NCBI GenBank assembly: GCA_964487045.1
Contig: CAZAOT010000003.1
Span: 72,983-136,982 of the forward strand
Direction: 5' to 3'
DNA length: 64,000 bases
From: an uncultured Candidatus Saccharibacteria bacterium
Lineage (GTDB): Bacteria > Patescibacteriota > UBA1384 > DTJR01
The translations under genes were made by a program, and so were the position numbers. Below the pieces are notes generated by a model that was not told the origin of the DNA, searched no databases, and saw nothing but the letters and a program-made list of their open reading frames with translations. Below, one piece after another: positions 16,220 to 59,367 of this stretch (its first letter is position 1; each line of letters starts with the position of its first letter).

Positions 16220-16226
16220 GGAGGGC

Positions 16227-35628: not shown

Positions 35629-35640
35629 ACTATTAAAACC

Positions 35641-35669
35641 TTGAATTTTTATTCTAGTTAGGGTATATT
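35641..35669 (+). promoter_or_regulatory. promoter TTGAAT-17-TATATT for glycosylation cluster
   Basis: TTGAAT at 35641-35646 and TATATT at 35664-35669. Confidence 0.55.
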
Positions 35670-35730
35670 AACAATCAATCAGGTTAAAGTATCAATTAAG
35701 AGACCTTCAGGTTGATTGTTGGGGTGTAAA

Positions 35731-36993: not shown

Positions 36994-37009
36994 GATATAG
37001 TTTTGATTG

Positions 37010-37681: not shown

Positions 37682-37689
37682 GAGGAATC

Positions 37690-39642: not shown

Positions 39643-40727
39643 AGATATTGATGGTAGCACCACTTCGTCGACCAATTGACCCAGATATAACTGCCTCGAG
39701 GCCGAGAGTTATATTGGATTTAATTGAGGGTCTGATAAAAGAGGGTCATGAGGTTTCAGTTCTTGGAACAGGCGACTCCGAAATTCCAAATGCTAAGTTG
39801 ATTCCATTAATTGATAAAGCGATTAATTTTATGCCCGCTTTTGAAAATCCTTTTTATGCAGAAACAGGCTTTTTGGTCAGATGTGCAAAAAAACTTGAGG
39901 AATTATCTGGTGAGTTCGATATTATCCACAATCATCAATTTCCGGAATTTATTAATTTATTAATTGAAGACAAATTAAAATGTCCAATGATAACAACGGT
40001 ACATGCTCAGATGACTCCGGAGATGGATGAAGCACTTGCCTGTTTTCCGGATTCTAATCTTGTAGCAATATCCGAATCTGCAAGTAGCTTGGCTAAAAAA
40101 GCGAAAATGTTAAAAGTCGTTTATAACGGAGTTGACACCAATCTTTATTCTTTTACTGAAGATAAAGAGGACTATCTACTTTGGATTGGAAGGCTTGCAA
40201 AATCAAAGGATGACAATGGTGAGTTTATTGATCCAAAAGGTGTTAAGTGGGCAATAAAATTGGCTGAGGCGACAGGTAGTCGACTAAAATTAGGCGGAAA
40301 TGTAGAAGATCAAGATTTCTATGATCAGGAAGTTAAGCCTCATCTGAACGATAAAATTGAATGGATCGGACCGATTTCCGCAGAGCAACCGCTATCAAAA
40401 GCTGAAGTAGCAGGCCTGATGCAAAAAGCTAAAGCATTTCTAATGACGATAAATTGGGAAGAGCCATTTGGATTAGTTATGGCAGAGTCGATGAGTTGTG
40501 GAACTCCTATTATTGCATTTAGGCGCGGGTCAGTACCTGAGATTATTGAAGATAGGAAAACGGGATTTATTGTGGAGCCTGAAAAAGGAGTTGATGGTCT
40601 AGTCGAAGCTTATGAAAAGATCAAGCAAATAAATCCAACTGATTGCAGAGATCTAGTGCTTAATAAATTCTCAATTCAAAAAATGGTTGAAAATTACGAG
40701 AAGGCATATATTGAACTTGTAAAATAA
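39639..40727 (+). CDS. GT4-family glycosyltransferase
   Basis: EEPFGLVMAESMSCGTPIIAFRRGSVPEII. Confidence 0.85.
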   Translation: MKILMVAPLRRPIDPDITASRPRVILDLIEGLIKEGHEVSVLGTGDSEIPNAKLIPLIDKAINFMPAFENPFYAETGFLVRCAKKLEELSGEFDIIHNHQFPEFINLLIEDKLKCPMITTVHAQMTPEMDEALACFPDSNLVAISESASSLAKKAKMLKVVYNGVDTNLYSFTEDKEDYLLWIGRLAKSKDDNGEFIDPKGVKWAIKLAEATGSRLKLGGNVEDQDFYDQEVKPHLNDKIEWIGPISAEQPLSKAEVAGLMQKAKAFLMTINWEEPFGLVMAESMSCGTPIIAFRRGSVPEIIEDRKTGFIVEPEKGVDGLVEAYEKIKQINPTDCRDLVLNKFSIQKMVENYEKAYIELVK

Positions 40728-40736
40728 AGAAAAAAT

Positions 40737-41807
40737 ATGAAAAAACCAAAAATAGTTTATTATACGACACCGTATGGATACGGGCATGTTGTAAGAGCGA
40801 ACGCAATTATACAGGCGATTGGAGGTCGTGCTGACGTACATTTGATAGCGGCGATTGATATTATTTTTGATCTAGCTAAAAATATTCATTTTCATAAAAT
40901 TGATGAAATTCCTGGCTCGGTAAGGTTTGATTGTCCAATATATTATGAAGATAAAGAGGGGAAAACTCCAAGTACAAGTTCGGGAAAGCATATTGAAGAA
41001 TTTCGAACTCATACGCGAAAATTCGTTGATCTTCTTTGTGATATTAATCCCGATCTAGTCATTATTGATGTAACTCCGGAATTTGCGATTTTTGCGAAGA
41101 TATTGGGTTTTGAAAGCGCCCAGGTTTTAATCACCGGCAAAAGAGATGATTTACGAAATAAAGTGTCTTTGTGCAGCGTTGATCATGTGATAGTTCCATA
41201 CCCGGAAAATTTTGTTGATTTGTCTTACTTACCTGCTGAAGCTCGAAAAAATATATTTTATAGTGGCGCTTTCTCTAGGTTTGATGGCAAGCGAATTATT
41301 TCAAAAGATGATGCAAAAAAGAAACTTGGAATTCCAAGTGATAAGAAATTAGTTGTTTGTGCTTTTGGCCGAGGCGATTTAGGGGGCAAGGTAGTCAAAA
41401 AGGTTGAAGAAATCGCAAAATCTAAAGAATTTGCCGACTGCCAGTTTAAAATATTCGGCAATATTCCGAACGTTGATGAATATCTTAATGCAGCTGATTT
41501 TGCGATTTCAGGTGCTGGAGATAATACAGTGATGGAAAATTGTTATTATCGGGTTCCGATGATAATGATTCCGCTTAAAAGGCGTTATGATGAGCAGGTT
41601 CTCAAAGCTGAAGCGCTAGAGAAAATAGGAGCGGGAAAAATTATTTTAGAGGATGAAATAGATAGCAAGTTACAAGATGAATTACGTCGACTGATATCAG
41701 ACGAGGGGTATCGTGAAGAAGCTGCCAAAGCTGAAGGAAAGTTTGTTGACGGCCATGGAGCTGAGAGACTTGCTGATGAAATAATACGGTGGACTAAGCT
41801 TAGCTAA
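40737..41807 (+). CDS. GT28/MurG-like (GT-B) glycosyltransferase
   Basis: The C-terminal sequence ADFAISGAGDNTVMENCYYRVPMIMIPL resembles the Glyco_tran_28_C motif. Confidence 0.55.
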   Translation: MKKPKIVYYTTPYGYGHVVRANAIIQAIGGRADVHLIAAIDIIFDLAKNIHFHKIDEIPGSVRFDCPIYYEDKEGKTPSTSSGKHIEEFRTHTRKFVDLLCDINPDLVIIDVTPEFAIFAKILGFESAQVLITGKRDDLRNKVSLCSVDHVIVPYPENFVDLSYLPAEARKNIFYSGAFSRFDGKRIISKDDAKKKLGIPSDKKLVVCAFGRGDLGGKVVKKVEEIAKSKEFADCQFKIFGNIPNVDEYLNAADFAISGAGDNTVMENCYYRVPMIMIPLKRRYDEQVLKAEALEKIGAGKIILEDEIDSKLQDELRRLISDEGYREEAAKAEGKFVDGHGAERLADEIIRWTKLS

Positions 41808-41810
41808 TAG

Positions 41811-41839
41811 TTGACTCTTGATTCAATTTGATGTATAGT
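41811..41839 (+). promoter_or_regulatory. internal promoter TTGACT-17-TATAGT before manC-like gene, followed by SD-sequestering hairpin
   Basis: TTGACT at 41811-41816 and TATAGT at 41834-41839. CCTCGGTTAAA pairs with TTTAACC..GAGG. Confidence 0.55.
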
Positions 41840-41901
41840 AATTGCCTCGGTTAAAGTATATGATATTATCATAAATAGTTATTTTAACCTTCGGAGGAAG
41901 T

Positions 41902-42996
41902 ATGAATTATGCCGTTATAATGGCTGGTGGATCTGGTACAAGACTTTGGCCCATGAGCCGAAAACAGAAGCCTAAACAGCTTCATAATTTAGTTTCTGAT
42001 AAAACCCTTATTCAAGAAACATATAATAGATTGCTTAAGGCGTTACCCGAGGAAAATATCTATGTTTCTACGACTAGTTCATATGTAGATGAGATTAGAA
42101 AGCAGCTTCCTAAAATTCCGCGAGAAAATTTTATTATTGAGCCTTCTTCTCGCAATACTGGACCAGCGCTCGCCTATTTGGCAAAAGTTATTGCGATGAA
42201 GGACCCGGAGGCTATTATTGCCACTATTGCTTCTGATCATATAGTTAAAAATATTGATGTTTTCGCCAATACTGTCAAAACGGCTTTTGAAGCAGCTAAA
42301 AAATTTCCTGATCATTTGATTGCGGTTGGGATTAATCCTACTAAACCAGATACCGGACTGGGTTATATCAAAATGGGCTCGATGAAGGTAGAGATTAACG
42401 ATGAGAAGGTTTTTGAAGTCGATACGTTTGTAGAAAAACCAGATCACAAAACAGCGGAAAAGTATTTACAGAGCTGGGAATATTTATGGAATGGTGCTTA
42501 TTATTTCTTCTCGGCCAAATCGATGCTCGGATGGATAAAGAAGTATCGTCCAGAGATGCTCAAGACAATCGAAGAGATCGGCGAGCTTATAGCGCAGGGT
42601 GCTAATGGTACTACGCAAACTAAGATTAAGTCCCTTTATGAGTCACTCGAAAATGAACAATTCGAGAACGCAATTATCGAGCAGGAAGATTTCACTAAAG
42701 TCTTAGTTATTCCTGCAGATCTTGGCTGGTCCGATATTGGCAACTGGGGAACTCTTCACGATGTATTAACTGAAACATATGGAAGTGAGATGATTTCGAG
42801 GGGTTATCATATAGATGTTGATTCGAAAGGTTGCTTGATTTATGGTGGTGAAAAAATGGTTGCTACCCTTGGACTAGAGAATATTATTGTTATTGATACT
42901 CCTGATGTAATGCTGATTGCAGACAAGAGAAGGGCTCAGGACGTTAAAAAGTTACTAGAAAAACTTAAAGACGAAGGTAAGCACTTATATTTGTAA
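41902..42996 (+). CDS. manC: mannose-1-phosphate guanylyltransferase-like sugar nucleotidyltransferase
   Basis: MAGGSGTRLWPMSR nucleotide-binding motif and ManC-like length, without the isomerase domain. Confidence 0.85.
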   Translation: MNYAVIMAGGSGTRLWPMSRKQKPKQLHNLVSDKTLIQETYNRLLKALPEENIYVSTTSSYVDEIRKQLPKIPRENFIIEPSSRNTGPALAYLAKVIAMKDPEAIIATIASDHIVKNIDVFANTVKTAFEAAKKFPDHLIAVGINPTKPDTGLGYIKMGSMKVEINDEKVFEVDTFVEKPDHKTAEKYLQSWEYLWNGAYYFFSAKSMLGWIKKYRPEMLKTIEEIGELIAQGANGTTQTKIKSLYESLENEQFENAIIEQEDFTKVLVIPADLGWSDIGNWGTLHDVLTETYGSEMISRGYHIDVDSKGCLIYGGEKMVATLGLENIIVIDTPDVMLIADKRRAQDVKKLLEKLKDEGKHLYL

Positions 42997-42997
42997 G

Positions 42998-43864
42998 ATG
43001 AAGATTCTTGTTCACCGAGTCCCGCTATGCGTAAAAAATGACAAGTTAGTTGAAAGCGGTGAATTGAACTCTCCAGAGTTTGATTTTAAGGGTCATTTTG
43101 CGAAAGAGACGATTGTCACTCTTGGTAGGTTTATGGTTTGCTACAAAGCCAAACCTTGGATGATTAATGATCTCATGATTATCGATGGTGACAAGGAGTA
43201 TGTAAAAAGTCCATCCGAGCTTGATGAGGAAGACTCAAATATTTTGAATTCTATTATTAATATTGCTATTGCGGAATTATCTAGTAATTCACAGATTAGC
43301 AAGATCGTCGTCGGAGCCAATATTAATCCCCTTCCTGAGAAAGAAGATCATGAATCGATCTGGCGTCTTCATGTGCATGTTTGTGGTTTGACAAAGGGTG
43401 AAGTCGAAAAAATGGAGATTTTAGACGAAGAAACAAATATTTATGAAGATGAAATAATCGAGCAATTTAAAAAAGAAATCGCCCAGCTCGATGGTTTTGA
43501 AGAATATGCCTATGGGGCAAGAAAAGATTTGGAAAATATAAAAGATGGTAATTTTATGGATGAAATTAAGTACATAGATATCAAGGTTAAAGAAATACTT
43601 TCTAAATTTGTAAGTAAATTTTCAGTAATTTCTTATTCTTTTTCTATAATAATAGAAGACGACCGGGCAAGTATGTACGTTTCCCCTAAGTCCAGAGATG
43701 GACGAGGGGTGCTTGAAGCAGTTGGAATTATACTTGATCGAGAAGAAAATCTTGAAATTGATAAAGATTTTATTGATGGAAGGAATAAATTTTTGAAAAG
43801 AGTGCAGGACAAACTAATTCAAATAGATGGCGCCAAAATTGGAAAGCTAAAATTGGAGGAATAA
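42998..43864 (+). CDS. hypothetical protein (possible HIT-like motif LHVHVCG)
   Basis: 288-aa ORF tightly packed in the cluster. The only cue is an H-phi-H-phi motif. Confidence 0.5.
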   Translation: MKILVHRVPLCVKNDKLVESGELNSPEFDFKGHFAKETIVTLGRFMVCYKAKPWMINDLMIIDGDKEYVKSPSELDEEDSNILNSIINIAIAELSSNSQISKIVVGANINPLPEKEDHESIWRLHVHVCGLTKGEVEKMEILDEETNIYEDEIIEQFKKEIAQLDGFEEYAYGARKDLENIKDGNFMDEIKYIDIKVKEILSKFVSKFSVISYSFSIIIEDDRASMYVSPKSRDGRGVLEAVGIILDREENLEIDKDFIDGRNKFLKRVQDKLIQIDGAKIGKLKLEE

Positions 43865-45756
43865 TGAAAAGCAGTGAAAATCTTATAAATATTGTTAAGA
43901 AACTTGGCCGAAGAGGAGAAGAAGTAATTCCAGTTGGCGAGGATCTTACTGACGTTTTTGGTAGGAGACTGAAATTCGAAGGGCAGGCAATTGATCTTGA
44001 GAAGAACCAGTTGAACAAGGCGGCGCAAGATTTGCTCAAAGAGCTTCAAACTGAGGGCTCGGAGATAGAGAAAGTTCTTAGAGGACAAGTAATGTGGTAT
44101 GACGTTCGGTCTTCGGTTTGGAAAGAGCATCCTGAACTTTCTGCTCTTATGGCACTTGCCTACGCTAAAGTCTTGATTGAAAGAACTGGAAAAACTACTG
44201 GTCATACGCTTAATATCGCGGTTGATTGTTACAAGAAGCATTATGAGTCAATGTCGGTGTTTGCGGATACAATTATTAGAACTGGAATCGTACGAGATGG
44301 TGGTGGCGTGATTTATTGGGGCGTTCAAAATGGAGGGTCTATTAGAAATGTTGCTCAGGCAGAGCGAGCATTTACTGGTGAAAATGGAAACTGGATTTTT
44401 GGAACAATGAGTCATAGAGCCGAGGATTATGTCGGTGCTAAATTTGGAATGCAGGGCAAGGTTTTTTGCGGTCCTGATCTAATGAATGATTTATATGGAA
44501 AAATAATTTCTGGAGACTTTCCTGAATTAATTGAGATAGCATCTCCTGAAGAATATGCTGTTACGGTTGGTGATTTAACTGCAAATAATATTGATATTGT
44601 TGAGGACTTGGTCAGAGCTAGAACTGGTACGAAAAAGCCGAAAGAAGAAATTCTTGCTGGTATGAAGGTTGGTATGAATATGTGCGGTAGCCCAGTTGGC
44701 AAAAACCTACTTGATATTCTCAAGGCGTTTGGAGCGGATGTAGTAGCTATGAATGATGTTTTGAATGAGAATTATTCAACTGCTAATATTGTTGACCCAA
44801 ATGAACATGAATCTGAAGCGATGGAGGATATGAAAGAAAAAGCTAAAGAAAATGGAAGAATCTATCTAGCGCTTGACCCAGACGGAGATAGGGGGACTGT
44901 GATTGCGCTTGATTCAAATGGTAAGCCAGAGTCGTTGACAGGTACTGAGCTACTTCTTCTGGCGACTGAGAATCTTGCTACTTATAATCCAAATAAACTA
45001 CAGGCGGACGTTATCTACGACATGAGAACTGGTATTTCAATCTCTATGCTCCAAGAAGCACTCACTAAAGCTGGATTTCCGATAAAGACTCTCGCGGCCG
45101 AACCTGGATATCCATTCTTTATGGAAATGATGGGAAATAACGAAGGGGCAGTTATAGCTGTTGAGAATACTAGCCATCAATTTCTTACGCCGATGACCAA
45201 TCCAATCTGGGGTGCACCAAAATATTATCCTGGGGTTCAAGGTGGAGACGATGGTGCAATCTTCTTGGTTTATATTCTCTCGCTTTGTCATGAAAAGTGG
45301 GAAGGAAGAAATCCGATTGAACAACTTGAGTTCTTGAGAGAGAAGTATAAAATGCCGAAAACTTTGATCCGGGAGTTCAAACCGACAGTGGATAAAAAAG
45401 ATGCTATGAGAAAATATGATCTTGCTGAGGCGATGTGCAACATTGTAAATGATGAGATCGATGGTAGTAAATATCAGATCGATACTATGAATAGTGGAGT
45501 AAGGTTAACCGATCATAGCAAGCAAGCGATGGTTCTTATCAGATACTCTAACACCGGTCCATCGTTTACCGCTTCAGGAGAAGCGGTGAGCAAGGAGGAT
45601 AGTGATTTCATGTTCTCTTTAGGTGGGGCGATTATGGCCAAAGCTGTCGCAAAAGTAAAAAAAGAAAAAGGTGACTTTGAATTTGACTTTGCTAACTATA
45701 GCGAATTCGGTAATATCGATGAAGCTAAGTACAATAAAATAATTAGCGAGGTATAA
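43864..45756 (+). CDS. alpha-D-phosphohexomutase family (PMM/PGM-like), long form
   Basis: GTMSHRAED (catalytic Ser-His) and the metal loop ALDPDGDRG. Confidence 0.78.
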   Translation: MKSSENLINIVKKLGRRGEEVIPVGEDLTDVFGRRLKFEGQAIDLEKNQLNKAAQDLLKELQTEGSEIEKVLRGQVMWYDVRSSVWKEHPELSALMALAYAKVLIERTGKTTGHTLNIAVDCYKKHYESMSVFADTIIRTGIVRDGGGVIYWGVQNGGSIRNVAQAERAFTGENGNWIFGTMSHRAEDYVGAKFGMQGKVFCGPDLMNDLYGKIISGDFPELIEIASPEEYAVTVGDLTANNIDIVEDLVRARTGTKKPKEEILAGMKVGMNMCGSPVGKNLLDILKAFGADVVAMNDVLNENYSTANIVDPNEHESEAMEDMKEKAKENGRIYLALDPDGDRGTVIALDSNGKPESLTGTELLLLATENLATYNPNKLQADVIYDMRTGISISMLQEALTKAGFPIKTLAAEPGYPFFMEMMGNNEGAVIAVENTSHQFLTPMTNPIWGAPKYYPGVQGGDDGAIFLVYILSLCHEKWEGRNPIEQLEFLREKYKMPKTLIREFKPTVDKKDAMRKYDLAEAMCNIVNDEIDGSKYQIDTMNSGVRLTDHSKQAMVLIRYSNTGPSFTASGEAVSKEDSDFMFSLGGAIMAKAVAKVKKEKGDFEFDFANYSEFGNIDEAKYNKIISEV

Positions 45757-45758
45757 CT

Positions 45759-46394
45759 GTGGGTAAGACGAAAGTATTTATAGATCTTGACGATACGTTG
45801 ATTGACACCGCTCAGATCAAGCATGATATTTTTGGCAAAATCGCTCTTATGGGTGTGCCTATGGCAGAAATAGCGTCAAGCTACAGCGAAGCGCGCAAAC
45901 AATTCGGCGCTGACTATCTTAAGCCTTTTGCTGAGTCATTTCAGGAATTTGGGATTGATGGCGAGATTTTGTACAATGGTCTGCAGCAAATGATTCTGCA
46001 ACATATGGATAAATATTTACTAGAAGATCGTCTTGTGTGGCTAGATCGGTTTCAGAGTGATCAATATGAAATGTACTTGCTCACTCACGGTAACCCTGAT
46101 ATTCAGGAGAGAAAGGTTCAGGGCCTTCATTTAGAAAATCTCTTTGAAGATAGAGTGATTTATGTGCAAGACAATAAGGCCGACTACATAAAGAAACTTC
46201 TAGGGCCTGGTGAGAAATTTATTTTGGTTGATGATAAAAAGGAAGTACTGGATGAAATTATCAATGAATACCCAGAACAAGCCGAAGTTTGGGAAGCAAC
46301 CAAAAGCGTAGACGATCAAGGCGAAATTACATACAATGATCCAGAAGGGTATTATAGTCCGCTTGATATTGCCCGAGAAGGAAAAAATTATTAA
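45759..46394 (+). CDS. HAD-superfamily hydrolase
   Basis: FIDLDDTLIDT motif I. GTG start. Confidence 0.75.
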   Translation: MGKTKVFIDLDDTLIDTAQIKHDIFGKIALMGVPMAEIASSYSEARKQFGADYLKPFAESFQEFGIDGEILYNGLQQMILQHMDKYLLEDRLVWLDRFQSDQYEMYLLTHGNPDIQERKVQGLHLENLFEDRVIYVQDNKADYIKKLLGPGEKFILVDDKKEVLDEIINEYPEQAEVWEATKSVDDQGEITYNDPEGYYSPLDIAREGKNY

Positions 46395-46406
46395 TAAGGA
46401 GTCTTT

Positions 46407-47330
46407 ATGGCAAAAATTTTAGTTACCGGTGGAGCTGGCTTTATTGGTTCGAACTTTTCCAATCTAATGAGTCAAAAAGGGCATGAAGTTGTTGCTTTTG
46501 ATAACCTTTCTCTTGGAAAAAAGGACAATCTTTCCGAAAAAGTAAAATTTGTTGAAGGTGACGTTAATAAAGAAGAAGATCTGCTTAGTGCTGGAGAAGA
46601 TTTTGATTATATTATTCATTTAGCTGCTTCCTCCTCTGCTCCAATGTTCGCCGAAAATATGTACTGGGCTTATCAGAATAATGTTTCGGGTCATGTCAGG
46701 GTCATGCAATATGCGAAAAAAATTGGTGTTAAGAAAATGTTGTTTGCCTCTACTTCTTCAATTTACGGCAACAATCCGACACCACTTACCGAAGACCAAG
46801 AAGTGATTCCTCCGAACCATTATTCGGTGACAAAGTTTGCTCAAGAAGGTGCTTCCCGTGTTTTTTCTAAAGCGGAGGGCTTAGAGATAATTGCTTTCAG
46901 ATTTATGTCGATTTACGGGTTAAACGAAGGTCACAAAACATATTTCGCTAATCTAGTTTCGCAATTTATTTGGTCAATGGCTAAAGACGAAGAGCCGGTT
47001 CTGTATGGTGATGGTACGCAGGAGAGGGATTTTACTAACGTAAAAGACGTTTGCCAGGGTATTGAAAAGGCGATGGAAACAGAAAAAAAATACGGATTTA
47101 CAATCTTCAATATCGGTACGCACAAGGCGATTAATCTATTGGAATTAGTTGAAATGATCAATAAGGCGCTTGGCAAAAATATTAAGCCGAAACTTATCCC
47201 GAATCCAGTTAAGGAAGGTTATGTGAAAAGCCAACTTGCCAGTATTGATAAGATATCAAGTGAACTTGGGTATGAACCGACGGTAGAACTCGAGGACGGA
47301 ATTAAAGAAATTGTTGATAACCTAAAGTAA
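46407..47330 (+). CDS. NAD-dependent sugar epimerase/dehydratase (SDR)
   Basis: VTGGAGFIGSN and YSVTK catalytic motif. Confidence 0.9.
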   Translation: MAKILVTGGAGFIGSNFSNLMSQKGHEVVAFDNLSLGKKDNLSEKVKFVEGDVNKEEDLLSAGEDFDYIIHLAASSSAPMFAENMYWAYQNNVSGHVRVMQYAKKIGVKKMLFASTSSIYGNNPTPLTEDQEVIPPNHYSVTKFAQEGASRVFSKAEGLEIIAFRFMSIYGLNEGHKTYFANLVSQFIWSMAKDEEPVLYGDGTQERDFTNVKDVCQGIEKAMETEKKYGFTIFNIGTHKAINLLELVEMINKALGKNIKPKLIPNPVKEGYVKSQLASIDKISSELGYEPTVELEDGIKEIVDNLK

Positions 47331-47387
47331 ACTTGTTTCGCACTAATAATTAGGTTAGAATTTAACTGAACAATAACAGGAGGGTTT

Positions 47388-48710
47388 TTGCGTAAAGGCA
47401 AAACAAGAGTTCTCTTTCTAGCTTTGGTTGGGGTTGTTGTTTTAGTAAGTCTTTTTGCAATTTTTAGGAAGCAGATCTTTGCTGACACCATCACGATGCC
47501 AAGCTGGATTGATAGCGCCACGGTAACTAAATATAATACCTGGACTGCAGGCCAGAAACTTTCTTTTGACAGATGTGCGTCGAATGGTGTTAATACTAAA
47601 TCCACCCTTACTCCTCAGGAGATCAATCAGTTCGGTTCGAGTTCGGTAGCTTTTAATATTAGACCAATCGTAAATGTATCTTCGAGTAGTCCTTACTGGC
47701 CATGGTATCAGAGTAGCTATAGGTTAATTGTCACACCTCTAAAATACGATCTTCAAGCCGATGGATCACGAACTCTGAAAATGAGGCTAACGCTTGGTAA
47801 TCCTGGCACTAGTCCTGTGATTGTTGCTAATCCAGAAGCTCGCTATTATTTCTGGTCTTTTAGCAACTCAGTTCCAAAAGTTGGCAATGTAATATTTACA
47901 AGGGGAGTTGATTATACCTATACATTGTTGCCTGGCGAATATGTGAGTCAAGATACGCTTGAACTCAGCGGAGTAAAGGATCCGGCTTACTGGGGAATCG
48001 AGTTCTCGAATATGAAATATACCTTATCTGGAACGACGCCAAATTTTGAGCAGCCAATTTGGGATCCAGTGGCGCAAAAAACTGATGCTACGCTTAGTTG
48101 TATAATCAATCCTCTTCCCTTAGCAGGGTTGGTTCCAGGCTCAATTCCGTCAGTAACTCCTTCGACAGAAGTTCCTGGTAGTAGAGCGGTTACCTTTAGA
48201 AGAGGATTTTCGACTTTTGGTAATAGTGGAATGACGAACGGCACAATGTTTAAAGACGCTGGATTATTTCTCTATGCTTTTGATGGACCAACTAATTCTT
48301 GGAAAATTTATCCTGGGGGACCGGAGATAAATACTGATTTAAAAAAAGGCTATTACGTTTATAATCCTAGTGCTGAGAAAACTATTAGGTTCGGTTTCGG
48401 TAATCCTACAGTGACTACTTTTGAGCTCACCAAGGGTTGGAATATGCTTTGGACTGCGATGGACAAAAGATTAAGCGATTTAAATTTATTTTATAACGGT
48501 CAGACTTTGTCCGCTCAAGATATGATTAATCTAAGGACGATTAGCAATAACATATTTATCATTCAGGATGATACTGCCACTACGGCTTGTACCTACTTTA
48601 AACTTCTGTCTAATACCGATACTCAAGCGACATGCTCTGGTGGATCTGCAGGACTCGGAAGTTCTAGCAAGATTCCAGGTGGTAAAGCATTCTGGATTTA
48701 TGTCAATTAA
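47388..48710 (+). CDS. signal-anchored secreted protein, unknown family, paralog A
   Basis: TTG lies 3 nt after GGAGGG. It shares the N-terminal PSWIDSATVTKYN block and a C-terminal module (LTKGWNMLW...CTYFKLL...KAFWIYV) of about 120 aa with the next gene. Confidence 0.7.
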   Translation: MRKGKTRVLFLALVGVVVLVSLFAIFRKQIFADTITMPSWIDSATVTKYNTWTAGQKLSFDRCASNGVNTKSTLTPQEINQFGSSSVAFNIRPIVNVSSSSPYWPWYQSSYRLIVTPLKYDLQADGSRTLKMRLTLGNPGTSPVIVANPEARYYFWSFSNSVPKVGNVIFTRGVDYTYTLLPGEYVSQDTLELSGVKDPAYWGIEFSNMKYTLSGTTPNFEQPIWDPVAQKTDATLSCIINPLPLAGLVPGSIPSVTPSTEVPGSRAVTFRRGFSTFGNSGMTNGTMFKDAGLFLYAFDGPTNSWKIYPGGPEINTDLKKGYYVYNPSAEKTIRFGFGNPTVTTFELTKGWNMLWTAMDKRLSDLNLFYNGQTLSAQDMINLRTISNNIFIIQDDTATTACTYFKLLSNTDTQATCSGGSAGLGSSSKIPGGKAFWIYVN

Positions 48711-48786
48711 TTTTTTTAAATTGTTTTTGATTGTTAAAAAAGTAAAATTGTAATAGTAGTTTGATTACTTATCATTAGGAGGATGT

Positions 48787-50217
48787 GTGAAGACAAAAAA
48801 TAACCAAAAGCTTAAATTAATAGTATTTTTGGTGCTAGTTATTGGTCTTGCAGCACTTGCAGGTTTCTATATATATAAAAGGACGGTATCTGCTGATACT
48901 ACTCTTCCTTCTTGGATAGATTCGGCTACAGCTACTAAATATAATAGCGTTTGGTCGACTGCTCAGAAACAGCAGTTTCTTGGTTGTATGTCGAATGGTT
49001 ATACTACCAAAAGCACTTTGACTGCCGCCGAACAGTCGCAGTTTGGTGCAAATTCGGTAGTATTTGAGGGTCAGGCAGCTCCTCCAAATGACCCTGCTTA
49101 TCAGATACCATTCTATCAAAGTAAATATCGAATAGTTGTAACTCCCCAAATGTATACAACTAATAATGGATCTACGAGTGCTAAATTTAAATTTAATGTT
49201 TCTAATCCTACTTCAAGCACCTACCCAATGAGAAAGACTTCGATCAGGTTAAGCTTTTGGCATGTCGAGCAATTCGACTATTATGTCGATGGAGTCACTC
49301 CGCATTATTGGGCTGCCGATCAGGTATTATATTTCCCGAATCAGGACAATCAATCATCGCTTGCGCCTGGCCAACAGATGACAATTGAATCAAACGTCTT
49401 AAATATGACTAATGAAAGTTTTTATACCGTTAGCTTTGCTACAGAGATGTATGGTGTTAATACCTCAACCGGGGCAATTACATGGACCGGAGGGGGAACG
49501 GCAAGCTCGGTAAATTGTATAGTAAACCCAATTCCTATTGCATCGCTTAGGACTATGGCTTTTGCCTCTGTCACGCCGACTCAAACTACAACAAGCACCG
49601 CCACTTCCACGGTGACAGCAAGTGCAACTAGGACGGTTGCGCCTCCAACTGTAACGCCAACTCCTTCGGTCACATCAACTACCGCGGGACCGGGAGACTC
49701 TACTTATAATTTTCCTCGTGGTTTTAGTGTATTTGGAGCTACAGCTAATTTCCCATCAAGTCGGTTTGCTGATAATGGGTTATATGTCTACAAGTTTGAT
49801 GGTGTCTCGAACAGCTGGGTATATTGGCCGGGTATGACTCAATTTAATTTAGAAACAGGCAAGGGTTATTATGCCTATGCTGCTTCAGCGAAGTCCGCAA
49901 GCCTTCCTCTAGCCGCTGTTCCTACGGGTACGTATTCGCTGACAAAGGGTTGGAATATGCTTTATAACATTGGGGATAAATCGCTTAGTTCATTGCAGCT
50001 TAGCTATAACGGGGTAACCAAGTCAGCCCAGGAGATGATAAATAGTGGCACGATCCATTCAAGAGTTTTTATTATTGATAACGATCAAGCTACTCAGGCT
50101 TGCAGCTACTTTAAGCTACTTGGGTCAACTAACTCTGTTGCTAATTGTAGCTCAAACACTTTAGCGGTAACGGCTACTTTAAATTCCGCCAAGGCCTTCT
50201 GGGTTTACGTATTCTGA
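48787..50217 (+). CDS. signal-anchored secreted protein, unknown family, paralog B with Thr/Ser/Pro linker
   Basis: GTG lies 4 nt after GGAGG. The linker is TPTQTTTSTATSTVTASATRTVAPPTVTPTPSVTSTT. Confidence 0.7.
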   Translation: MKTKNNQKLKLIVFLVLVIGLAALAGFYIYKRTVSADTTLPSWIDSATATKYNSVWSTAQKQQFLGCMSNGYTTKSTLTAAEQSQFGANSVVFEGQAAPPNDPAYQIPFYQSKYRIVVTPQMYTTNNGSTSAKFKFNVSNPTSSTYPMRKTSIRLSFWHVEQFDYYVDGVTPHYWAADQVLYFPNQDNQSSLAPGQQMTIESNVLNMTNESFYTVSFATEMYGVNTSTGAITWTGGGTASSVNCIVNPIPIASLRTMAFASVTPTQTTTSTATSTVTASATRTVAPPTVTPTPSVTSTTAGPGDSTYNFPRGFSVFGATANFPSSRFADNGLYVYKFDGVSNSWVYWPGMTQFNLETGKGYYAYAASAKSASLPLAAVPTGTYSLTKGWNMLYNIGDKSLSSLQLSYNGVTKSAQEMINSGTIHSRVFIIDNDQATQACSYFKLLGSTNSVANCSSNTLAVTATLNSAKAFWVYVF

Positions 50218-50259: not shown

Positions 50260-52026
50260 GTGGCTAAGAAAAAGAAGAAAACTACAAGGCAGCGCTCACC
50301 CTTATTGACACCAAGGGTTCGGCTATTGGTTATCTATGCGGTAATTGGTGTAATTTTTTTATCTTTAGCTGTCTGGCTAACCTGGCCTCTTAGTAAGTTC
50401 ATTAATTCTGCTATCATCTCCCAACCCGACTTTACTGACGGACCGTTTTTTATTTGGAATCTGTGGTGGGTGAAAAAAGCGATTTTGAATCTATCAAATC
50501 CATTCTTTAGTGATTTTGTATATTTTCCCTCGCGATCTAATCTTGCTCTTCATACCCTTACATTTACTTCAGGGATAATCTATTTGCCACTTAGTCTTTT
50601 TTTCAGGCCTCTTACTTCGTTGAATATAATTCAGCTCTTGTCTTTTATAGCGAGTGGGCTAGGGATTGTTTTATTTTCGAGTTATCTAACTAAACCAAAA
50701 TCAATATTGGAATATTTAAGCCTAGTGCCAGGGGCCATTATTTTCGCTTTCTCCCCTTTCGTTTTTTCTCACCTTCTGGCGGGACACTATAACTTAAGTA
50801 TGATTTGGCCGATTCCATTTGTCGCATATTTCTTGATAAGGACACTAGATGAGAAAAAATATACGCCGGCAATAGGCTTAGGGATATTTGCTTCAGCTCT
50901 CGCCTATCTTGACTTGCAACTGATATTCTTTGCTGGCATTGTATGTCTGCCGATTTTTTTCTCACACATGATTTTTAAGTGGAGAGAATTTTTTACCAAG
51001 CAATCGGTGCTCAGTTTGGCTCTAGCTGTTTTAGTTTTTGCAATTATTTTTGCTCTTCCATATGGATATCTGATGAGCGAATTCTGGGGGACGAAAGATG
51101 CATTTTCTACATATAATAATGGCGATATAAAGATTTTATTTGGTTTTAATCCACTAAATCCACTATTTAAATATCAAAATTACAAACTTCTTCTTTCATT
51201 GATTGGATCATATCGCGAAAACACAATTTCAATCGGTTTTACTGGTCTATTTGTAACTTTAGGAGGGTTTGCGTTGTTTGCGCGGCAACATTGGAAACAG
51301 AAATTTATTTATTTTTTCGTTCTTATCGTTGGAATAGCTTTATCGCTTGGCCCCAACCTTCAATATAACAATCATGTTTATGAGCATATTAGATTGCCCT
51401 ATTATTATCTTCAAAATCTACCATTCTTTAATCTAGGTTTAGTGCCGAGCCGATTTATTTTAATCGCTTATTTTGCTCTAGCTGTGCTTGTGAGTTTGAG
51501 CATGTTCTCTGTCGTAAGATTTTTTCAAAACAAAAAATTGTTTATTCCGGCCATCTGCTTACTTGTGATTGTTCCAATGTTTATTTTAGTCGAAAATTAT
51601 TCTGGCAAAATGATGATTGATCCACTTTATGATATCAAGCAGGTTCAAGAAATTGCACGAGAGGAAGGCGATTTTACTATCTTGCCTTATGAAGCCGGTC
51701 AAAGAGACGCGTATATTCAGGTTCTGCATCAAAAGAAAGTAGTGACGGGATTCTTGGGTAGGAGGATACATGATTATTATATGTCCAAGTATGGTAGCGT
51801 TTATCCAATAAACAAATTTTCTAGAGGACTCGCAGATGAGCTTAATCAATCTGACACTAAGCAATCAGTTGTTTCGGTATTCAGCGAATACAAGATAAGG
51901 TATATAGTTATTGAGAAAAATTTTAAGGATGATCAAGAGCTTGCGAAATTGAGGAGCTATTTAAAAAATATTCAGGCAGATTTGACTTATGAATCTAGCC
52001 AAGTGATGATTTACAAGGTTAATTAA
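50260..52026 (+). CDS. GT-C-fold-like polytopic membrane protein (PMT/ArnT/YfhO-type glycosyltransferase candidate)
   Basis: At least 10 hydrophobic helices followed by a soluble C-terminal domain of about 130 aa. Placement is by architecture only. Confidence 0.5.
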   Translation: MAKKKKKTTRQRSPLLTPRVRLLVIYAVIGVIFLSLAVWLTWPLSKFINSAIISQPDFTDGPFFIWNLWWVKKAILNLSNPFFSDFVYFPSRSNLALHTLTFTSGIIYLPLSLFFRPLTSLNIIQLLSFIASGLGIVLFSSYLTKPKSILEYLSLVPGAIIFAFSPFVFSHLLAGHYNLSMIWPIPFVAYFLIRTLDEKKYTPAIGLGIFASALAYLDLQLIFFAGIVCLPIFFSHMIFKWREFFTKQSVLSLALAVLVFAIIFALPYGYLMSEFWGTKDAFSTYNNGDIKILFGFNPLNPLFKYQNYKLLLSLIGSYRENTISIGFTGLFVTLGGFALFARQHWKQKFIYFFVLIVGIALSLGPNLQYNNHVYEHIRLPYYYLQNLPFFNLGLVPSRFILIAYFALAVLVSLSMFSVVRFFQNKKLFIPAICLLVIVPMFILVENYSGKMMIDPLYDIKQVQEIAREEGDFTILPYEAGQRDAYIQVLHQKKVVTGFLGRRIHDYYMSKYGSVYPINKFSRGLADELNQSDTKQSVVSVFSEYKIRYIVIEKNFKDDQELAKLRSYLKNIQADLTYESSQVMIYKVN

Positions 52027-56067: not shown

Positions 56068-59000
56068 ATTAGAAATAATTTTCTAGTTATTGTATTAGGT
56101 CTATCTTTTGTGGCATTTACTTCTTGTATTTCTGTTTCTCAAGCCGCAGCCGATGAAGATATAACAATTTCTTCAAATACTACCTGGGTTGCTGGGACAT
56201 ATACTTATAGAGATATCACTGTCACCAACAATGCAACATTAACTCTAGGTGGAACTTATACAACCGATACCAACGGTACGGGTGTAATTATTAATGCTAG
56301 GAGCGTTACTGTAAATTCAGGCTCTACAATCTCCGCTACCGGTCAGGGTTATGCTGCTAATGCTGGAATTGGTAAGGGAACGAATGTTAGTGCTTATGGC
56401 GGCGGCGGCAGCCACGCTAACAATGGTGGAAATCATGCTATTGGCTCTGGTGGTGGTACTACTTTATACGGCTCAACAACTGCTCCGACAACACTCGGCT
56501 CTGGCGGCGGAAATGGAGGAGCAGGTGGAGGGGCGATTCAGCTTAATTTATCTGGAAATTTATCTCTTGCTGGGAATATATACGCAAAAGGAAATAATGG
56601 TGGCACTAATACTGGTTCAGGTGCTGGCGGTTCAATTTATATAAGCGCTGTCGATTTATCTGGCGCTGGAAATATTAGTGTTAATGGGGGTAGCTCAGGA
56701 TCAGGTGGCGGCGGCGGTAGCGGCGGAAGAATTATGATTTATCACACAGGAACAAATTCTTTAACTGATGGTAACATTACAGCCGCTGGCGGAACTGGTT
56801 ACGCATCTGGCGGAGTTGGTTCTAAGCTGATCTATAACAAGACAACTAAAGACGTAACAATTGCTTCTGATATTACAATCGATTCGACAATGGGAATTGA
56901 TGAAAATGGAGACCCATCAACAGACGGAATATTTCACTTTAATGATTTAACTATTAATAATAATGCAAACCTATATTCAAAAGCTTATTACACTACTGAC
57001 ACAAACGGAACAGGTATTGAGCTAAGTTTGACTGGCGACTTGAATGTTGCCTCTGGGGCAAAAATTAATGGTATCGGTAAGGGTTATGCCTATCAGGCAG
57101 GGGACGGAAAGCCTACTGGAGTAAGCAATACTTATGGCGGAGGTGGAGCTCACGGGGGTAATGGTGGACGTGGCGATCCTGCTGGAAGCGGCGGAACAAA
57201 ATACGATTCAACCCTTTTTCCTGTAAAACCTGGGAGTGGAGGTTACACTACTCGTGGAGGTGCAGGAGGAAGTGCAGTTAAGATCACGGCAAGTGCGATA
57301 ACGGTAGATGGCTCGATCGACCAATCTGGCGCGGTTGTTGTGGCGAATGCTTCAAATAACGGTGGTGGTGGTGCTGGTGGATCGGTATATGTTGTTGCTG
57401 ACTCGCTTTCTGGTGCTGGTACGATCAAAGCTGATGGGACAAATGGTTATGGATATAGTGGCGGTGGCGGTGGAGGAAGGATTGCGATTTATGCTGACAC
57501 TTCCGGATTTAATACTAACAATATAACTGCAGCCAAGGGTATCAAGGGTGGATCTGGTCTTTCTGCTGATGGAGATGTCGGGACTATCTTTTTATACGAT
57601 ACTGCATCCGGAAATGTTTCAGCTTCAAGCGATGTAACTTTTAATGCGGATCAAGGTGTGAGTCGTGATGGTTCAGCTAGAACTGACGGAGTTTTTTATT
57701 TTAATAATTTGACTGTTACGAATAATGCTACTGTGACAATTGGTGGTTACTATACCGATGACACTAATGGTCGCGGAGTAACTATAAATCTCGATGGAAG
57801 CTTAACGATAGATTCTGGATCAACTGTAACAGCAAGCGGACAGGGATACACGGCTGGAGCTGGTCCGGGCAAGGGTTCGGGAGGTTCTTCTACTTCTGGA
57901 TCAGGTGGTAGCTATGGAGGTGTCGGCGGCCAGTCGTACAACAACAACTTAGCCCCAGCGGTTTACGGTACCACCGAAGCTAATTTTCCTTATAAACTTG
58001 GTTCAAGTGGCGGCGCTGGTGATCAGGTCACGGGCCCTGCAGGCGGAGGGGCGGTGACATTCCGTGTTCTGGGAAATATTGTAAATAACGGAACTATTTC
58101 TGCTGACGGCTCAGTTGCTAAGGCCAGTCCAATTCCGGGTTGGTACACTGGGGGTGGATCTGGAGGAAGCGTCTTTCTTGTTTGTAACACCCTATCTGGC
58201 AGTGGAACGATAACCGCTAAAGGTGGCAATGGTGCAGGAACTGATTATGGATCTGGTGGCGGTGGAGGAGGAAGAATATCAGTTGTTTATTCAACTAGTC
58301 AAAATATCGCACTAGGAAACTTCTCAGCATCAGGCGGCACTGGCGGTGGCGGAGTATCTAACCGAAATGGAGCAGAAGGATCTGTTAACATTACGCAGAA
58401 AGTGTTGCCTGCCGCTGAATTTACTTTAAAAAATCCTAATAATGATTCAACCCAATTCACTAACACAGAGAACGTAGAAATTGTGCCGACTGATGAGACT
58501 GTCGAAAAATATAAGGAAGCCGCGTCAGTAAATGAATTAGTCCCTGCGTTTTACGCCGACGGTTGGGCAAATATCACGGATGGTAAGGATGTTGGAGCTT
58601 CAGAGGGGGCAAAAACTGTTAGAGCATGGTTTAAAGATTCAAATGAATTAATCTCGAGCTCTGTGGGAAGCGCTACAATTACGCTTGATAAAACTCAACC
58701 AGATATTACGATCTCAAATAATAATCAGTCAGTTTCAAATGCTTCAACTACAGTTCAGCTTGATTTATCCGATAATACTTCCGGAATAGATTACCTATTG
58801 ATCAATGGTCAAAGAGTTGAGGTTAGTGCTCTATCCATTGTTTCCAGGGTTCAACCCTCAAGTATAAAAGCCTATGCTGATAATATTACTTACGAGGCAA
58901 CCGTCTCTCTTGCTGAAGGAGAAAATTCAATTCCAATTGTTGTATATGATAAAGCTGGCAATTCTACTCAAACTACATTTATCGCGACAAGGACGACCCC

Positions 59001-59367
59001 AGTTGTCCCTTCGCCTACGCCAACTCCAGTTAACTCCAGCTTGCCTTCTAGCTCGGCTACCTCGACAGCATCTTCATCCGGTGAATCTTCATCAAGCGTA
59101 ACTGCCAGTGGCTCATCTACAGATTCGTCTGAAACCACAGAAGCTGAAGCTGGTGAAGGACTTATGTCATCTTTAGCCGAAAACATACAATCAGCGACAG
59201 AAAAAATTGCTGATGCCCTCAACCCATTTTCAAATAAATCTAGCATTGATGAGTCTGAAAATTCTGGATTGGAAAAATCTCCTTATTCTTCTCTAAAAAT
59301 CATTATTCTCATCATTCTTATGTTAACTGTTATCTTTAGCTACTTTGTCTTGAAGAATAAAAAGTAG
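56068..59367 (+). CDS. giant Gly-rich beta-helix-like surface protein with C-terminal TM anchor; probable ATT start
   Basis: The frame is open from 56059. An ATT at 56068 lies 4 nt after AAGGAGGG and restores the signal peptide (I/M)RNNFLVIVLGLSFVAFTSCISVSQA. The GTG at 56110 (track) would truncate it. Three internal repeats, a Ser/Thr linker and a terminal TM helix are present. Confidence 0.75.
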   Translation: MRNNFLVIVLGLSFVAFTSCISVSQAAADEDITISSNTTWVAGTYTYRDITVTNNATLTLGGTYTTDTNGTGVIINARSVTVNSGSTISATGQGYAANAGIGKGTNVSAYGGGGSHANNGGNHAIGSGGGTTLYGSTTAPTTLGSGGGNGGAGGGAIQLNLSGNLSLAGNIYAKGNNGGTNTGSGAGGSIYISAVDLSGAGNISVNGGSSGSGGGGGSGGRIMIYHTGTNSLTDGNITAAGGTGYASGGVGSKLIYNKTTKDVTIASDITIDSTMGIDENGDPSTDGIFHFNDLTINNNANLYSKAYYTTDTNGTGIELSLTGDLNVASGAKINGIGKGYAYQAGDGKPTGVSNTYGGGGAHGGNGGRGDPAGSGGTKYDSTLFPVKPGSGGYTTRGGAGGSAVKITASAITVDGSIDQSGAVVVANASNNGGGGAGGSVYVVADSLSGAGTIKADGTNGYGYSGGGGGGRIAIYADTSGFNTNNITAAKGIKGGSGLSADGDVGTIFLYDTASGNVSASSDVTFNADQGVSRDGSARTDGVFYFNNLTVTNNATVTIGGYYTDDTNGRGVTINLDGSLTIDSGSTVTASGQGYTAGAGPGKGSGGSSTSGSGGSYGGVGGQSYNNNLAPAVYGTTEANFPYKLGSSGGAGDQVTGPAGGGAVTFRVLGNIVNNGTISADGSVAKASPIPGWYTGGGSGGSVFLVCNTLSGSGTITAKGGNGAGTDYGSGGGGGGRISVVYSTSQNIALGNFSASGGTGGGGVSNRNGAEGSVNITQKVLPAAEFTLKNPNNDSTQFTNTENVEIVPTDETVEKYKEAASVNELVPAFYADGWANITDGKDVGASEGAKTVRAWFKDSNELISSSVGSATITLDKTQPDITISNNNQSVSNASTTVQLDLSDNTSGIDYLLINGQRVEVSALSIVSRVQPSSIKAYADNITYEATVSLAEGENSIPIVVYDKAGNSTQTTFIATRTTPVVPSPTPTPVNSSLPSSSATSTASSSGESSSSVTASGSSTDSSETTEAEAGEGLMSSLAENIQSATEKIADALNPFSNKSSIDESENSGLEKSPYSSLKIIILIILMLTVIFSYFVLKNKK
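56152..58400 (+). repeat. three tandem coding repeats (about 230-260 codons each) inside the surface protein
   Basis: Units begin near 56152, 56851 and 57611. Each has the order ...NN(A)T(L/V)T..GG.YTTDTNG.GV...SG(S)T(I/V).A.GQGY...G.GKG...GGGG..., ending in runs of GGGG. Confidence 0.75.

Follow-up and report, generated by a model that had tools for sequence, protein, structure and literature searches.

Tandem paralogous genes for rare secreted modular proteins beside a sugar-nucleotide cluster in an uncultured Saccharibacteria bacterium

Gene organization of the locus

The window analyzed here, a 64,000-nucleotide stretch of DNA from an uncultured Candidatus Saccharibacteria bacterium, contains two tandem genes, gene 1 and gene 2, that code for members of one secreted protein family (Table 1). 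Both open reading frames of the original prediction are present in the ORF list, and they use the expected TTG (gene 1) and GTG (gene 2) start codons, each preceded by a strong AGGAGG Shine-Dalgarno sequence. A segment ahead of gene 2 (48748–48775) is promoter-like by consensus match only. The two products, proposed earlier to be tandem paralogs, align over approximately their full length in BLASTP (36% identity, 52% positives, E=3e-74); the similarity is far above chance, and the two are true paralogs.

Table 1. Coordinates of the two genes, their encoded modules and the flanking genes in the window
Feature	Position	Strand	Basis
Upstream sugar cluster (context)	34627..47330	+	Pfam scans
Shine-Dalgarno AGGAGG, gene 1	47378..47383	+	Read in sequence; 4 nt before TTG at 47388
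Gene 1, 440-aa family member	47388..48710	+	TTG start; ORF list
Gene 1 signal peptide, aa 1–32, predicted cut IFA↓DT	47388..47483	+	Basic n-region, hydrophobic run, c-region
Gene 1 N-module ('PSWIDS'), aa 35–248	47490..48131	+	HMM envelope 35–248, E=6e-85
Gene 1 short Pro/Ser/Thr spacer, aa 249–263	48132..48176	+	Sequence LAGLVPGSIPSVTPSTEVPG
Gene 1 C-module, aa 264–440	48177..48707	+	HMM envelope 264–440, E=1e-83, zero-residue tail
Shine-Dalgarno AGGAGG, gene 2	48777..48782	+	Read in sequence
Gene 2, 476-aa family member	48787..50217	+	GTG start; ORF list
Gene 2 signal peptide, aa 1–36, predicted cut VSA↓DT	48787..48894	+	Basic n-region, hydrophobic run, c-region; predicted cleavage
Gene 2 N-module, aa 38–254	48898..49548	+	Short helical/β lead-in, then Ig-like β-sandwich
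Gene 2 Pro/Thr/Ser-rich disordered linker, aa 255–302	49549..49692	+	pLDDT <50, composition
Gene 2 C-module, aa 303–476, reaching the C-terminus	49693..50214	+	
588-aa polytopic membrane protein, GT-C-like, non-family (context)	50260..52026	+	Downstream neighbour

The ORF list and Pfam scans also place the pair where it had been located, between sugar-nucleotide genes and the gene for a polytopic membrane protein. The upstream cluster contains GalT-like, GT4, DUF218, DUF218+HAD, GT4, GT28-like, ManC, orphan, PMM-like, HAD and NAD-epimerase genes, and its backbone is common to the window, contigs L004, L009, L010 and L011, and the contig that carries family member P0004. The downstream gene, coding for a 588 residue membrane protein, is syntenic in every related contig. 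This protein has no direct match in Pfam, NCBIfam or the PDB, and a PDB profile search returned AftD alone (E=1.5). Its homologs (E 1e-37 to 1e-16), however, carry DUF6311, DUF2079 or PTPS_related domains; one has a weak PMT_2 match (E=1.8e-4), and another is named STT3 by its source. These domain families belong to the GT-C clan. The conserved acidic residue expected of GT-C proteins in the first extracytoplasmic loop after TM1 is present as Asp60, which lies in the motif (D/T)DGPFF.WNLWW and is invariant in 38 homologs.

Export signals and domain architecture

Both genes code for exported, disulfide-bonded modular proteins composed of a Sec-type signal, an N-module ('PSWIDS') in which a short helical lead-in precedes an Ig-like β-sandwich, a flexible Pro/Thr/Ser-rich spacer and an all-β C-module of ~175 residues. 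The signals exhibit a basic n-region, an h-region and suitable residues at –3 and –1 (IFA↓D in gene 1, VSA↓D in gene 2). In gene 1, a 19 residue hydrophobic run is followed by I at –3 and A at –1 of the predicted cut, and residues 5–34 form a single helix in the AlphaFold model of the gene 2 product. A cleavable signal peptide is likelier than the signal anchor of the original prediction, because the [IV]-x-A↓D c-region fits signal peptidase I and these genomes also have it on secreted ORFs unrelated to the family. The cleavage motif is present in 67/84 full-length family members, typically four residues past the hydrophobic run. The possibility that [IV][SF]AD is a family-specific N-terminal sorting motif was rejected, since it also occurs on non-family secreted ORFs in the window (21621..23942 and 29541..30113) and in L008 (3035..3727); it is the general predicted signal-peptide cleavage region of the lineage.

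The anticipated N-terminal block, ADT.T[ML]PSWIDSAT..KYN...C.SNG..TKSTLT..E..QFG..SV.F, is found in the BLASTP alignment, and the gene 1 N-module is a homolog of the gene 2 N-module, for which a model exists. The stretch ahead of the gene 2 C-module has a P+T+S fraction of 0.65, and AlphaFold assigns a pLDDT <50 to residues 261–302. The C-terminal module carries the expected motifs LTKGWNML, FII.(N/D)D.AT.AC.YFKLL and KAFW.YV, but it begins further upstream, at F.RGFS.FG, and so spans ~175 residues rather than the ~120 first proposed. The two proteins end in ...KAFWIYVN (gene 1) and ...KAFWVYVF (gene 2), and neither C-terminus has a sorting motif, hydrophobic helix or basic tail of the sortase (LPXTG) or PEP-CTERM type.

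The C-module family

The family is very rare and is defined by the C-module, its mobile unit. This module occurs as a single copy in 103 of the 104 retrieved proteins, and its end mostly lies 0–2 residues from the protein C-terminus. The passengers ahead of it are mutually unrelated and range from ~50 to >1000 residues, with a P/T/S-rich linker preceding the C-module in 59/85 members. Only ~12 of 50 long members have a recognizable passenger, and these are all glycan-related: GH123_N in four, PA14 in two, and further GLEYA, β-helix, CBM_4_9, GH141_M and CarboxypepD_reg. A linker and either one or two Ig-like modules are found in members of the family. Minimal members of 225–263 residues consist of signal, linker and C-module and nothing more.

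A conserved, strictly C-terminal module found once per protein on varied cargo, with multiple cargo genes in a genome, recalls the C-terminal domain (CTD) of type IX secretion (NCBIfam TIGR04183), a conserved β-rich domain at the extreme C-terminus of unrelated secreted proteins. The C-module could likewise be a sorting or secretion signal that dedicated machinery recognizes and then either removes or uses to ligate the cargo to a glycan, with the adjoining glycan-synthesis genes supplying the anchor. This is improbable for several reasons. First, no Pfam or NCBIfam sorting-domain model, including that of the type IX CTD, matches the C-module. Second, no candidate machinery genes were seen in the window or related loci, and no T9SS/Por-type genes are among their annotated neighbours. 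Third, at 175 residues with internal disulfides the module exceeds known sorting tags and is about twice the size of the type IX CTD, and the cargo-less minimal members make little sense for a signal.

Conserved cysteine pairs, already noted in the two window proteins, occur throughout the family and vary together among its members. Cys439 and Cys454 are both present in 45 C-modules and both absent in 20, and never is one found alone; the cysteine count is even in 62/65 C-modules. The invariant or near-invariant positions are mostly aromatic, Gly or Asn (W344, W389, N390, W472, Y362, Y364 and F442), and they include no conserved enzyme-type His, Asp or Glu. FWVYV, a β-strand at the extreme C-terminus, is highly conserved, and in nearly all pairs compared conservation is higher in the C-module than in the N-module. 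The predicted model of the C-module is of high confidence and all-β. An internal duplication ('RGFSVFG...GKGYYAY' versus 'KGWNMLY...AKAFWVYV') was considered and rejected, as hhalign of the two halves aligned 11 columns at 5% probability.

Searches for known relatives

Consistent with the earlier statement that no domain was recognizable, neither full protein has a Pfam-A or NCBIfam match better than E=0.037, far below the curated cut-offs. When 36 diverse C-modules were scanned against the same collections, which include CBM, lectin, SLH, CWB2, LysM, S-layer and sorting-domain models, no recurrent family was found; each weak match occurred in 1/36 modules, at E≥0.018. A structure search of the C-module revealed no likeness to any CBM, lectin, SLH or CWB2 fold and no counterpart among the solved structures in the PDB. 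The closest known systems include cupin and double-stranded β-helix folds (ppnP 7eyp, mannose-6-phosphate isomerase 1zx5, EutQ). Nothing relevant was found in the literature on similar modules or on DUF6311 and DUF2079. A phage or mobile-element origin was also rejected: PHROG and PADLOC gave no matches, IMG/VR contigs contain no relatives, tblastn of phage genomes gave no match, and BFVD gave no significant match.

Two old paralogs in a variable slot

The gene 1 product is identical to P0009 of the protein collection, and that of gene 2 to P0001, whose gene is present on three more independent assemblies at 100% DNA identity. Gene 1 shares 58% identity with P0005 in both the N- and C-modules, versus 37% and 47% with its window neighbour gene 2, which in turn shares 53% and 60% with P0002. 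Gene 1 belongs to the ortholog group of P0005 and gene 2 to that of P0002. Because a closer ortholog of each paralog is found elsewhere, the duplication is old.

The slot between the sugar cluster and the GT-C-like gene holds from zero to at least two, and probably four, confirmed family members. There are two C-module genes in the window and in L009, at least three in L007, and P0004 and P0018 in the P0004 contig. The slot paralogs carry different passengers and adjoin both the glycan-synthesis genes and the GT-C-like gene. In L010 and L011 the slot is empty while the sugar cluster and the GT-C-like gene are kept, which indicates that the glycan genes are independent of the C-module proteins. 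Clustering of paralogs beside glycan genes is confined to the close clade of the window, L004, L009 and the P0004 contig; distant members occur in unrelated contexts, and the one on L012 lacks such clustering. The two window genes are old paralogs in a chromosomal slot whose number of C-module genes varies among related genomes.

The presence of several paralogs per locus would also be expected if the proteins were subunits of a self-assembling envelope structure, such as an S-layer-like lattice or a fibre, in which the C-module serves protein-protein oligomerization and not glycan binding. The minimal members could then be lattice components, and the terminal FWVYV strand could serve strand exchange. 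Nevertheless, this explanation is quite unlikely, as searches of S-layer and pilin families and folds revealed no likeness, the family is too rare and its copy number too variable (0 to 4 or more) for a main envelope layer, and no assembly genes are among the annotated neighbours.

Possible function of the C-module

It is possible, and tentatively preferred here, that the C-module is a new glycan-binding or surface-attachment module that holds variable passengers on a sugar-coated surface. Following export, signal peptidase I would cut the gene 1 product after A32 and that of gene 2 after A36, and the C-module would bind glycan and thereby fix the variable N-terminal passenger to a polysaccharide surface. 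The likeliest surface would be the producer's own envelope glycan, to whose synthesis the mannose-nucleotide, GT4 and GT-C-like genes on either side would contribute, and the Pro/Thr/Ser spacer is a plausible site of O-glycosylation. The role of the C-module would then be that of SLH, CWB2 or CBM modules in other bacteria. Several lines of evidence support attachment. First, the proteins are exported and modular with paired cysteines, and a single terminal C-module follows diverse passengers that are glycan-related where recognizable. Second, conservation centres on aromatic, Gly and Asn residues with no enzyme-type residues, and is greater in the C-module than in the N-module. Third, paralogs with different passengers cluster by glycan-synthesis genes. 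Against attachment, a pure anchor does not readily account for the minimal members, the fold resembles no CBM, lectin, SLH or CWB2 module, few passengers are recognizable, two related slots are empty, and distant members lie in unrelated contexts.

The same module could instead bind foreign glycans. In this alternative, which is less probable, the proteins are distal adhesins or lectins, either released or tethered by the N-terminal helix, in which Ig-like modules and the Pro/Thr linker form a stalk and the C-module tip binds host-cell or substrate polysaccharide. The hydrophobic runs of the family, at 18–22 residues and often followed by K or R, are of transmembrane length; the one or two Ig-like modules plus linker would give stalk-like geometry; the minimal proteins would be sensible as soluble lectins; and the co-occurring PA14, GLEYA and CBM are adhesin or lectin modules. 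However, the [IV]-x-A↓D motif suits signal peptidase I and is common to unrelated secreted ORFs, conservation of the proteins peaks in the C-module whereas adhesin tips are often the most variable part, and lectins and CBMs less typically occur as a strictly terminal single copy than anchoring or sorting modules do.

Known systems offer partial parallels to the preferred attachment reading. CBM2 of Cellulomonas fimi Cex and CenA is a C-terminal carbohydrate-binding module of ~100 residues behind a Pro/Thr linker. Similar to Cex and CenA, the family comprises secreted modular proteins with a Pro/Thr-rich linker, a C-terminal β-rich module with invariant Trp and a disulfide, and partner domains that are carbohydrate-active where recognizable. 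In the all-β C-module, W344, W389, W472, Y362 and Y364, which are candidates for a solvent-exposed aromatic platform or groove of the CBM kind, show little or no variation. However, unlike CBM2, the C-module is ~175 residues long, has no sequence or structural likeness to any CBM, and is never internal or tandem; the window proteins lack a catalytic domain, and glycan binding is only proposed here.

A second parallel lies in gene order. Genes for cell-wall-anchored proteins cluster beside those for their anchoring polymer in Clostridioides difficile, where cwp genes lie beside the PSII locus, and in Bacillus anthracis, where SLH protein genes (sap-eag) lie beside csaB. The C-module genes resemble these SLH and CWB2 systems in forming a multi-paralog family, with an anchor-like module and variable passengers, beside sugar-nucleotide and glycosyltransferase genes. 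They differ in having one 175 residue domain per protein with no internal duplication, versus three tandem repeats of 55–90 residues, in the lack of homology, and in the persistence of the sugar cluster without the family in L010 and L011.

A more speculative and rather unlikely extension is that the C-module is a hitherto unseen fold forming the surface-display system of the lineage, which docks diverse passengers (Ig-like, lectins and glycosidase-like) on a mannose-containing envelope glycan built by the adjacent GT-C-like enzyme, with the slot as a passenger-swapping cassette site. If so, it would be a new class of envelope anchoring domain beside SLH, CWB2, LysM and GW. Any glycan-binding or anchoring role would make the C-module a structurally distinct addition to the small set of bacterial surface-display modules, and a way into the envelope biology of a lineage for which metagenomes, for example from landfill, are the sole source. 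With no function assigned, the module is still a clear-cut case of a domain that is very rare, is modelled with high confidence and lacks a PDB counterpart. On the other hand, metagenomic 'dark matter' is rich in orphan secreted domain families, and no established idea is overturned. The module is compact, disulfide-stabilized and confidently modelled, and at 175 residues easy to express and test.

In a comparison of paralogs and orthologs for selection, synonymous sites are saturated (pS 0.74–0.84) and the locus is 100% identical in its three other assemblies, so that the comparison is uninformative on positive selection; in the ortholog pair, dN is 0.31 for the C-module versus 0.41 for the N-module.

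Architecture of the paralogous gene pair

Genes 1 and 2 encode exported, disulfide-bonded, modular proteins. Their products align along the whole length at 36% identity (E=3e-74); the paralogy claimed by the original prediction is therefore real, and the features listed there as shared were all found: an N-terminal hydrophobic segment, the ADT..PSWIDS block, the C-terminal motifs and the Cys residues. AGGAGG lies a few bases 5' of the start codon in both genes, in keeping with the TTG and GTG starts and SD sequences described earlier. The locus is present at 100% DNA identity in three independent public assemblies, and an HMM scan of all six frames identified no further family members in the window.

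Alignment with the few homologs, domain HMMs and two AlphaFold models agree on one architecture, alike in both proteins. The signal is followed by an N-terminal module (N-module, 'PSWIDS') whose AlphaFold β-sandwich has roughly 12 strands (block pLDDT about 70-90), a spacer, and the conserved C-terminal module that defines the family (C-module). The C-module had been put at about 120 aa; its extent in the HMMs, alignment and models shows that the conserved module is about 175 aa long. Modeled alone from 36 sequences (AlphaFold; pLDDT 95.8, pTM 0.89), it comes out as an all-β fold of about 14 strands, plus three short helices.

Features of the paralog pair and of other window loci (positions in window nucleotides unless marked as residues; a slash marks the putative cleavage point)
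Feature	Position	Strand	Description
Gene 1	47388..48710	same as gene 2	TTG start, 440 aa
Gene 1 signal			basic n-region, 18-22-aa hydrophobic run, c-region ending IFA/D
Gene 1 N-module	residues 35-248		short helical lead-in, then Ig-like β-sandwich
Gene 1 spacer			Pro/Thr/Ser-rich, disordered, about 15 aa
Gene 1 C-module	residues 264-440		reaches last residue
Gene 2	48787..50217	same as gene 1	GTG start, 476 aa
Gene 2 signal			basic n-region, 18-22-aa hydrophobic run, c-region ending VSA/D
Gene 2 N-module	residues 38-254		short helical lead-in, then Ig-like β-sandwich
Gene 2 spacer			Pro/Thr/Ser-rich, disordered, about 48 aa
Gene 2 C-module	residues 303-476		reaches last residue
Membrane protein gene	50260..52026		588 aa, polytopic
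Orphan ORF	42998..43864	+	288 aa, precedes long PMM-like gene
Long PMM/PGM-like gene	43864..45756	+	630 aa
Secreted orphan ORF	21621..23942	-	773 aa, no Pfam/NCBIfam match
Secreted ORF	29541..30113		outside the family
Large ORF	56110..59367	+	1085 aa, no Pfam match
GC-rich island	16001..18000		54.7% GC, background about 40%
ORF in GC-rich island	16450..17739	+	orphan, 429 aa, no Pfam match
Second GC-rich patch	about 32-34 kb		overlapping ORFs, both strands

The two paralogs share only 37% identity in the N-module and 47% in the C-module. The 476-aa protein is nearest to the retrieved protein P0002 (N-module 53%, C-module 60%) and the 440-aa protein to P0005 (58% in both modules). Each is thus nearer to a protein elsewhere than to its neighbor, and the duplication is older than the divergence of these genomes; the related contig L004 keeps only one of the two paralog types. 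Nearly every pair shows stronger conservation in the C-module than in the N-module. DNA was available for an ortholog pair, in which dN is 0.31 for the C-module versus 0.41 for the N-module; saturation of synonymous sites (pS 0.74-0.84) makes dN/dS uninterpretable as a check for selection.

A rare orphan module with many passengers

Word-indexed searching across 5.8 billion clusters returned 8 family proteins. When 1.84 billion cluster representatives were searched exhaustively with an HMMER profile, 101 matched at E<=1e-3, nearly all in the C-module only. Just one family locus occurs among 185,579 species-representative genomes and seven in JGI metagenomes; viral contigs and phage genomes yielded none. 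A municipal landfill was the source of the metagenome behind one related contig.

The smallest protein with a C-module has 225 aa and the largest about 1750. Every such protein carries a single copy, ending 0-2 residues from the C-terminus in most members, and a P/T/S-rich stretch precedes it in 59 of 85 (mean P+T+S fraction 0.43, vs 0.21 elsewhere in the protein). The N-module is limited to about a dozen representatives, always with a C-module and sometimes twice per protein. Minimal members consist of signal, short linker and C-module (263, 230 and 233 aa at loci L008, L009 and L014). A passenger is recognizable in about 12 of 50 long members, and every one is glycan-related: GH123_N (4), PA14 (2), GLEYA, β-helix, CBM_4_9, GH141_M and CarboxypepD_reg. 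At L008, 5802..7886 encodes a secreted protein of 694 aa that lacks a C-module and is similar to the passenger part of P0008 (802 aa); directly after it, with zero gap, comes the 263-aa minimal protein, which has its own signal peptide (7887..8678). L016 shows the same arrangement. This looks like gene fission or, conversely, fusion in P0008.

As the original prediction anticipated, no domain was recognized: neither window protein matched Pfam or NCBIfam, and searches of PHROGs, PADLOC and, by sequence profile, the PDB also returned nothing. With 36 diverse C-modules, Pfam and NCBIfam gave no weak match (E<=0.1) in more than one member. BFVD yielded no match at E<=1e-3 and one borderline match, an uncultured-phage 'hemin binding protein' (TM 0.47). 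The C-module fits no family described so far, and among solved structures, the set to which 'no known fold' applies here, it has no counterpart. Its architectural logic is familiar: signal, variable passenger, Pro/Thr linker, conserved C-terminal module. Orphan secreted families of this kind are common in uncultured lineages; the C-module is a clean, very rare orphan domain, confidently modeled and with a testable hypothesis.

Export and disulfide bonds

An N-terminal hydrophobic run is present in 84 of 104 retrieved family proteins, the remainder being mostly fragments. In 67 of these 84, [IV]-x-A-[DSN] follows, typically 4 residues on, most commonly as IFAD (16), ISAD (14) or VSAD (8). The hydrophobic segment predicted as a signal anchor is real, but in both products it is more likely a cleavable signal peptide than an anchor. 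Since the motif also occurs on secreted ORFs outside the family (window 21621..23942 and 29541..30113; L008 3035..3727), it is the general signal-peptidase-type site of the lineage rather than a sorting tag specific to the family. Secreted proteins of the lineage (e.g. window 19010, 29541 and 21621; L008 3035; L011 456) have a common, distinctive signal peptide, whose long hydrophobic run, often with K/R or N/Q residues after it, leads to [IV]-x-A/D; it might be used as a secretome predictor specific to the lineage.

The predicted conserved Cys pairs hold up across 65 C-modules, in which Cys439 and Cys454 co-vary (both present in 45, both absent in 20, never single), and the Cys count is even in 62. 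Such a pattern argues strongly, if indirectly, for disulfides and so for a location outside the cytoplasm. The N-module pair behaves likewise when alignment A1 is inspected by eye: the second N-modules of P0004 and P0006 lack both Cys, and all other modules keep both. In alignment A3, the C-modules of one sub-clade (e.g. P0031, P0037-P0043) extend into a C-terminal tail of 15-24 residues that ends in Cys and also have an extra internal Cys ('QC'), which suggests a second disulfide pinning the tail; in the most distant clade no Cys is left.

A variable slot beside glycan genes

The pair lies, as predicted, between a sugar cluster and a polytopic membrane protein gene. Upstream are GalT-like, GT4, DUF218, DUF218+HAD, GT4, GT28-like, ManC, an orphan ORF, a long PMM-like protein, HAD and an NAD-dependent epimerase; ROK, RuvA and RecG follow the membrane protein. 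This backbone is kept in every related contig fetched, and gene number varies in the slot from epimerase (or PMM) to membrane protein: none in L010 and L011, one in L004 (P0002), two in the window, two in L009 (one minimal, one 2xN+C) and four large ORFs in the P0004 contig, where P0004 and P0018, with an unrelated passenger, are confirmed members. Short contigs also carry tandem arrays (at least three members in L007, three in L014, two each in L015 and L012). The distant member P0227 (L012) sits among ATP-synthase and TatD genes, so the link with the sugar cluster is limited to the close clade.

The 588-aa membrane protein has no direct match in Pfam, NCBIfam or the PDB. It is likely, but not proven, to be GT-C-like: its more distant homologs carry DUF6311, DUF2079 or PTPS_related, one homolog matches PMT_2 weakly and one is named STT3 by its source, and Asp60, just after TM1, is invariant. 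In a PDB profile search the sole match was AftD, a GT-C enzyme, with a non-significant E=1.5.

Proposed role of the C-module

A conserved C-terminal module, fixed in position, is common to many unrelated passengers. We tentatively propose that it is a glycan-binding attachment module holding them on a polysaccharide surface. The likeliest surface would be the envelope glycan that the producer itself would make with the flanking genes; O-glycosylation of the P/T/S spacer is a possibility. The proposal draws on the C-terminal position behind a linker, the glycan-related nature of all recognizable passengers, a conservation pattern in which aromatic residues and Asn prevail and residues of catalytic type are missing, stronger conservation than in the passenger, and paralog arrays adjoining glycan genes. 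Such arrays have precedents in the C. difficile cwp/PSII and B. anthracis SLH/csaB loci, where, as in the slot, paralogs lie beside glycan genes.

Against attachment, the C-module shows no fold similarity to known binding modules, and distant members occupy unrelated gene contexts. Members without cargo and empty slots in related genomes also count against attachment. A distal adhesin or lectin, directed at foreign glycans, is conceivable, if rather unlikely. A self-assembling structural subunit seems improbable, and it is very doubtful that the C-terminal placement marks a CTD-like sorting domain. Attachment to glycan is the reading we prefer.

Other features of the window

Pfam recognizes only domain II in the unusually long PMM/PGM-like protein, which has 634-636 aa in relatives; L004 and L011 have a normal 467-468-aa PMM in its place. 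The P0004 contig carries a 294-aa unannotated ORF in the position of the 288-aa orphan. The 773-aa ORF, with the family signal type (LLKNNIFAD/SDS) and no C-module, is another large orphan secreted protein. The sole match of the 1085-aa ORF is weak, to a gliding-motility AgmC N-terminal model (NCBIfam E=4e-6, 25.9 bits vs a cut-off of 275). The GC-rich island, which also has a long antisense ORF, may have been horizontally acquired, and a second GC-rich patch lies elsewhere in the window.
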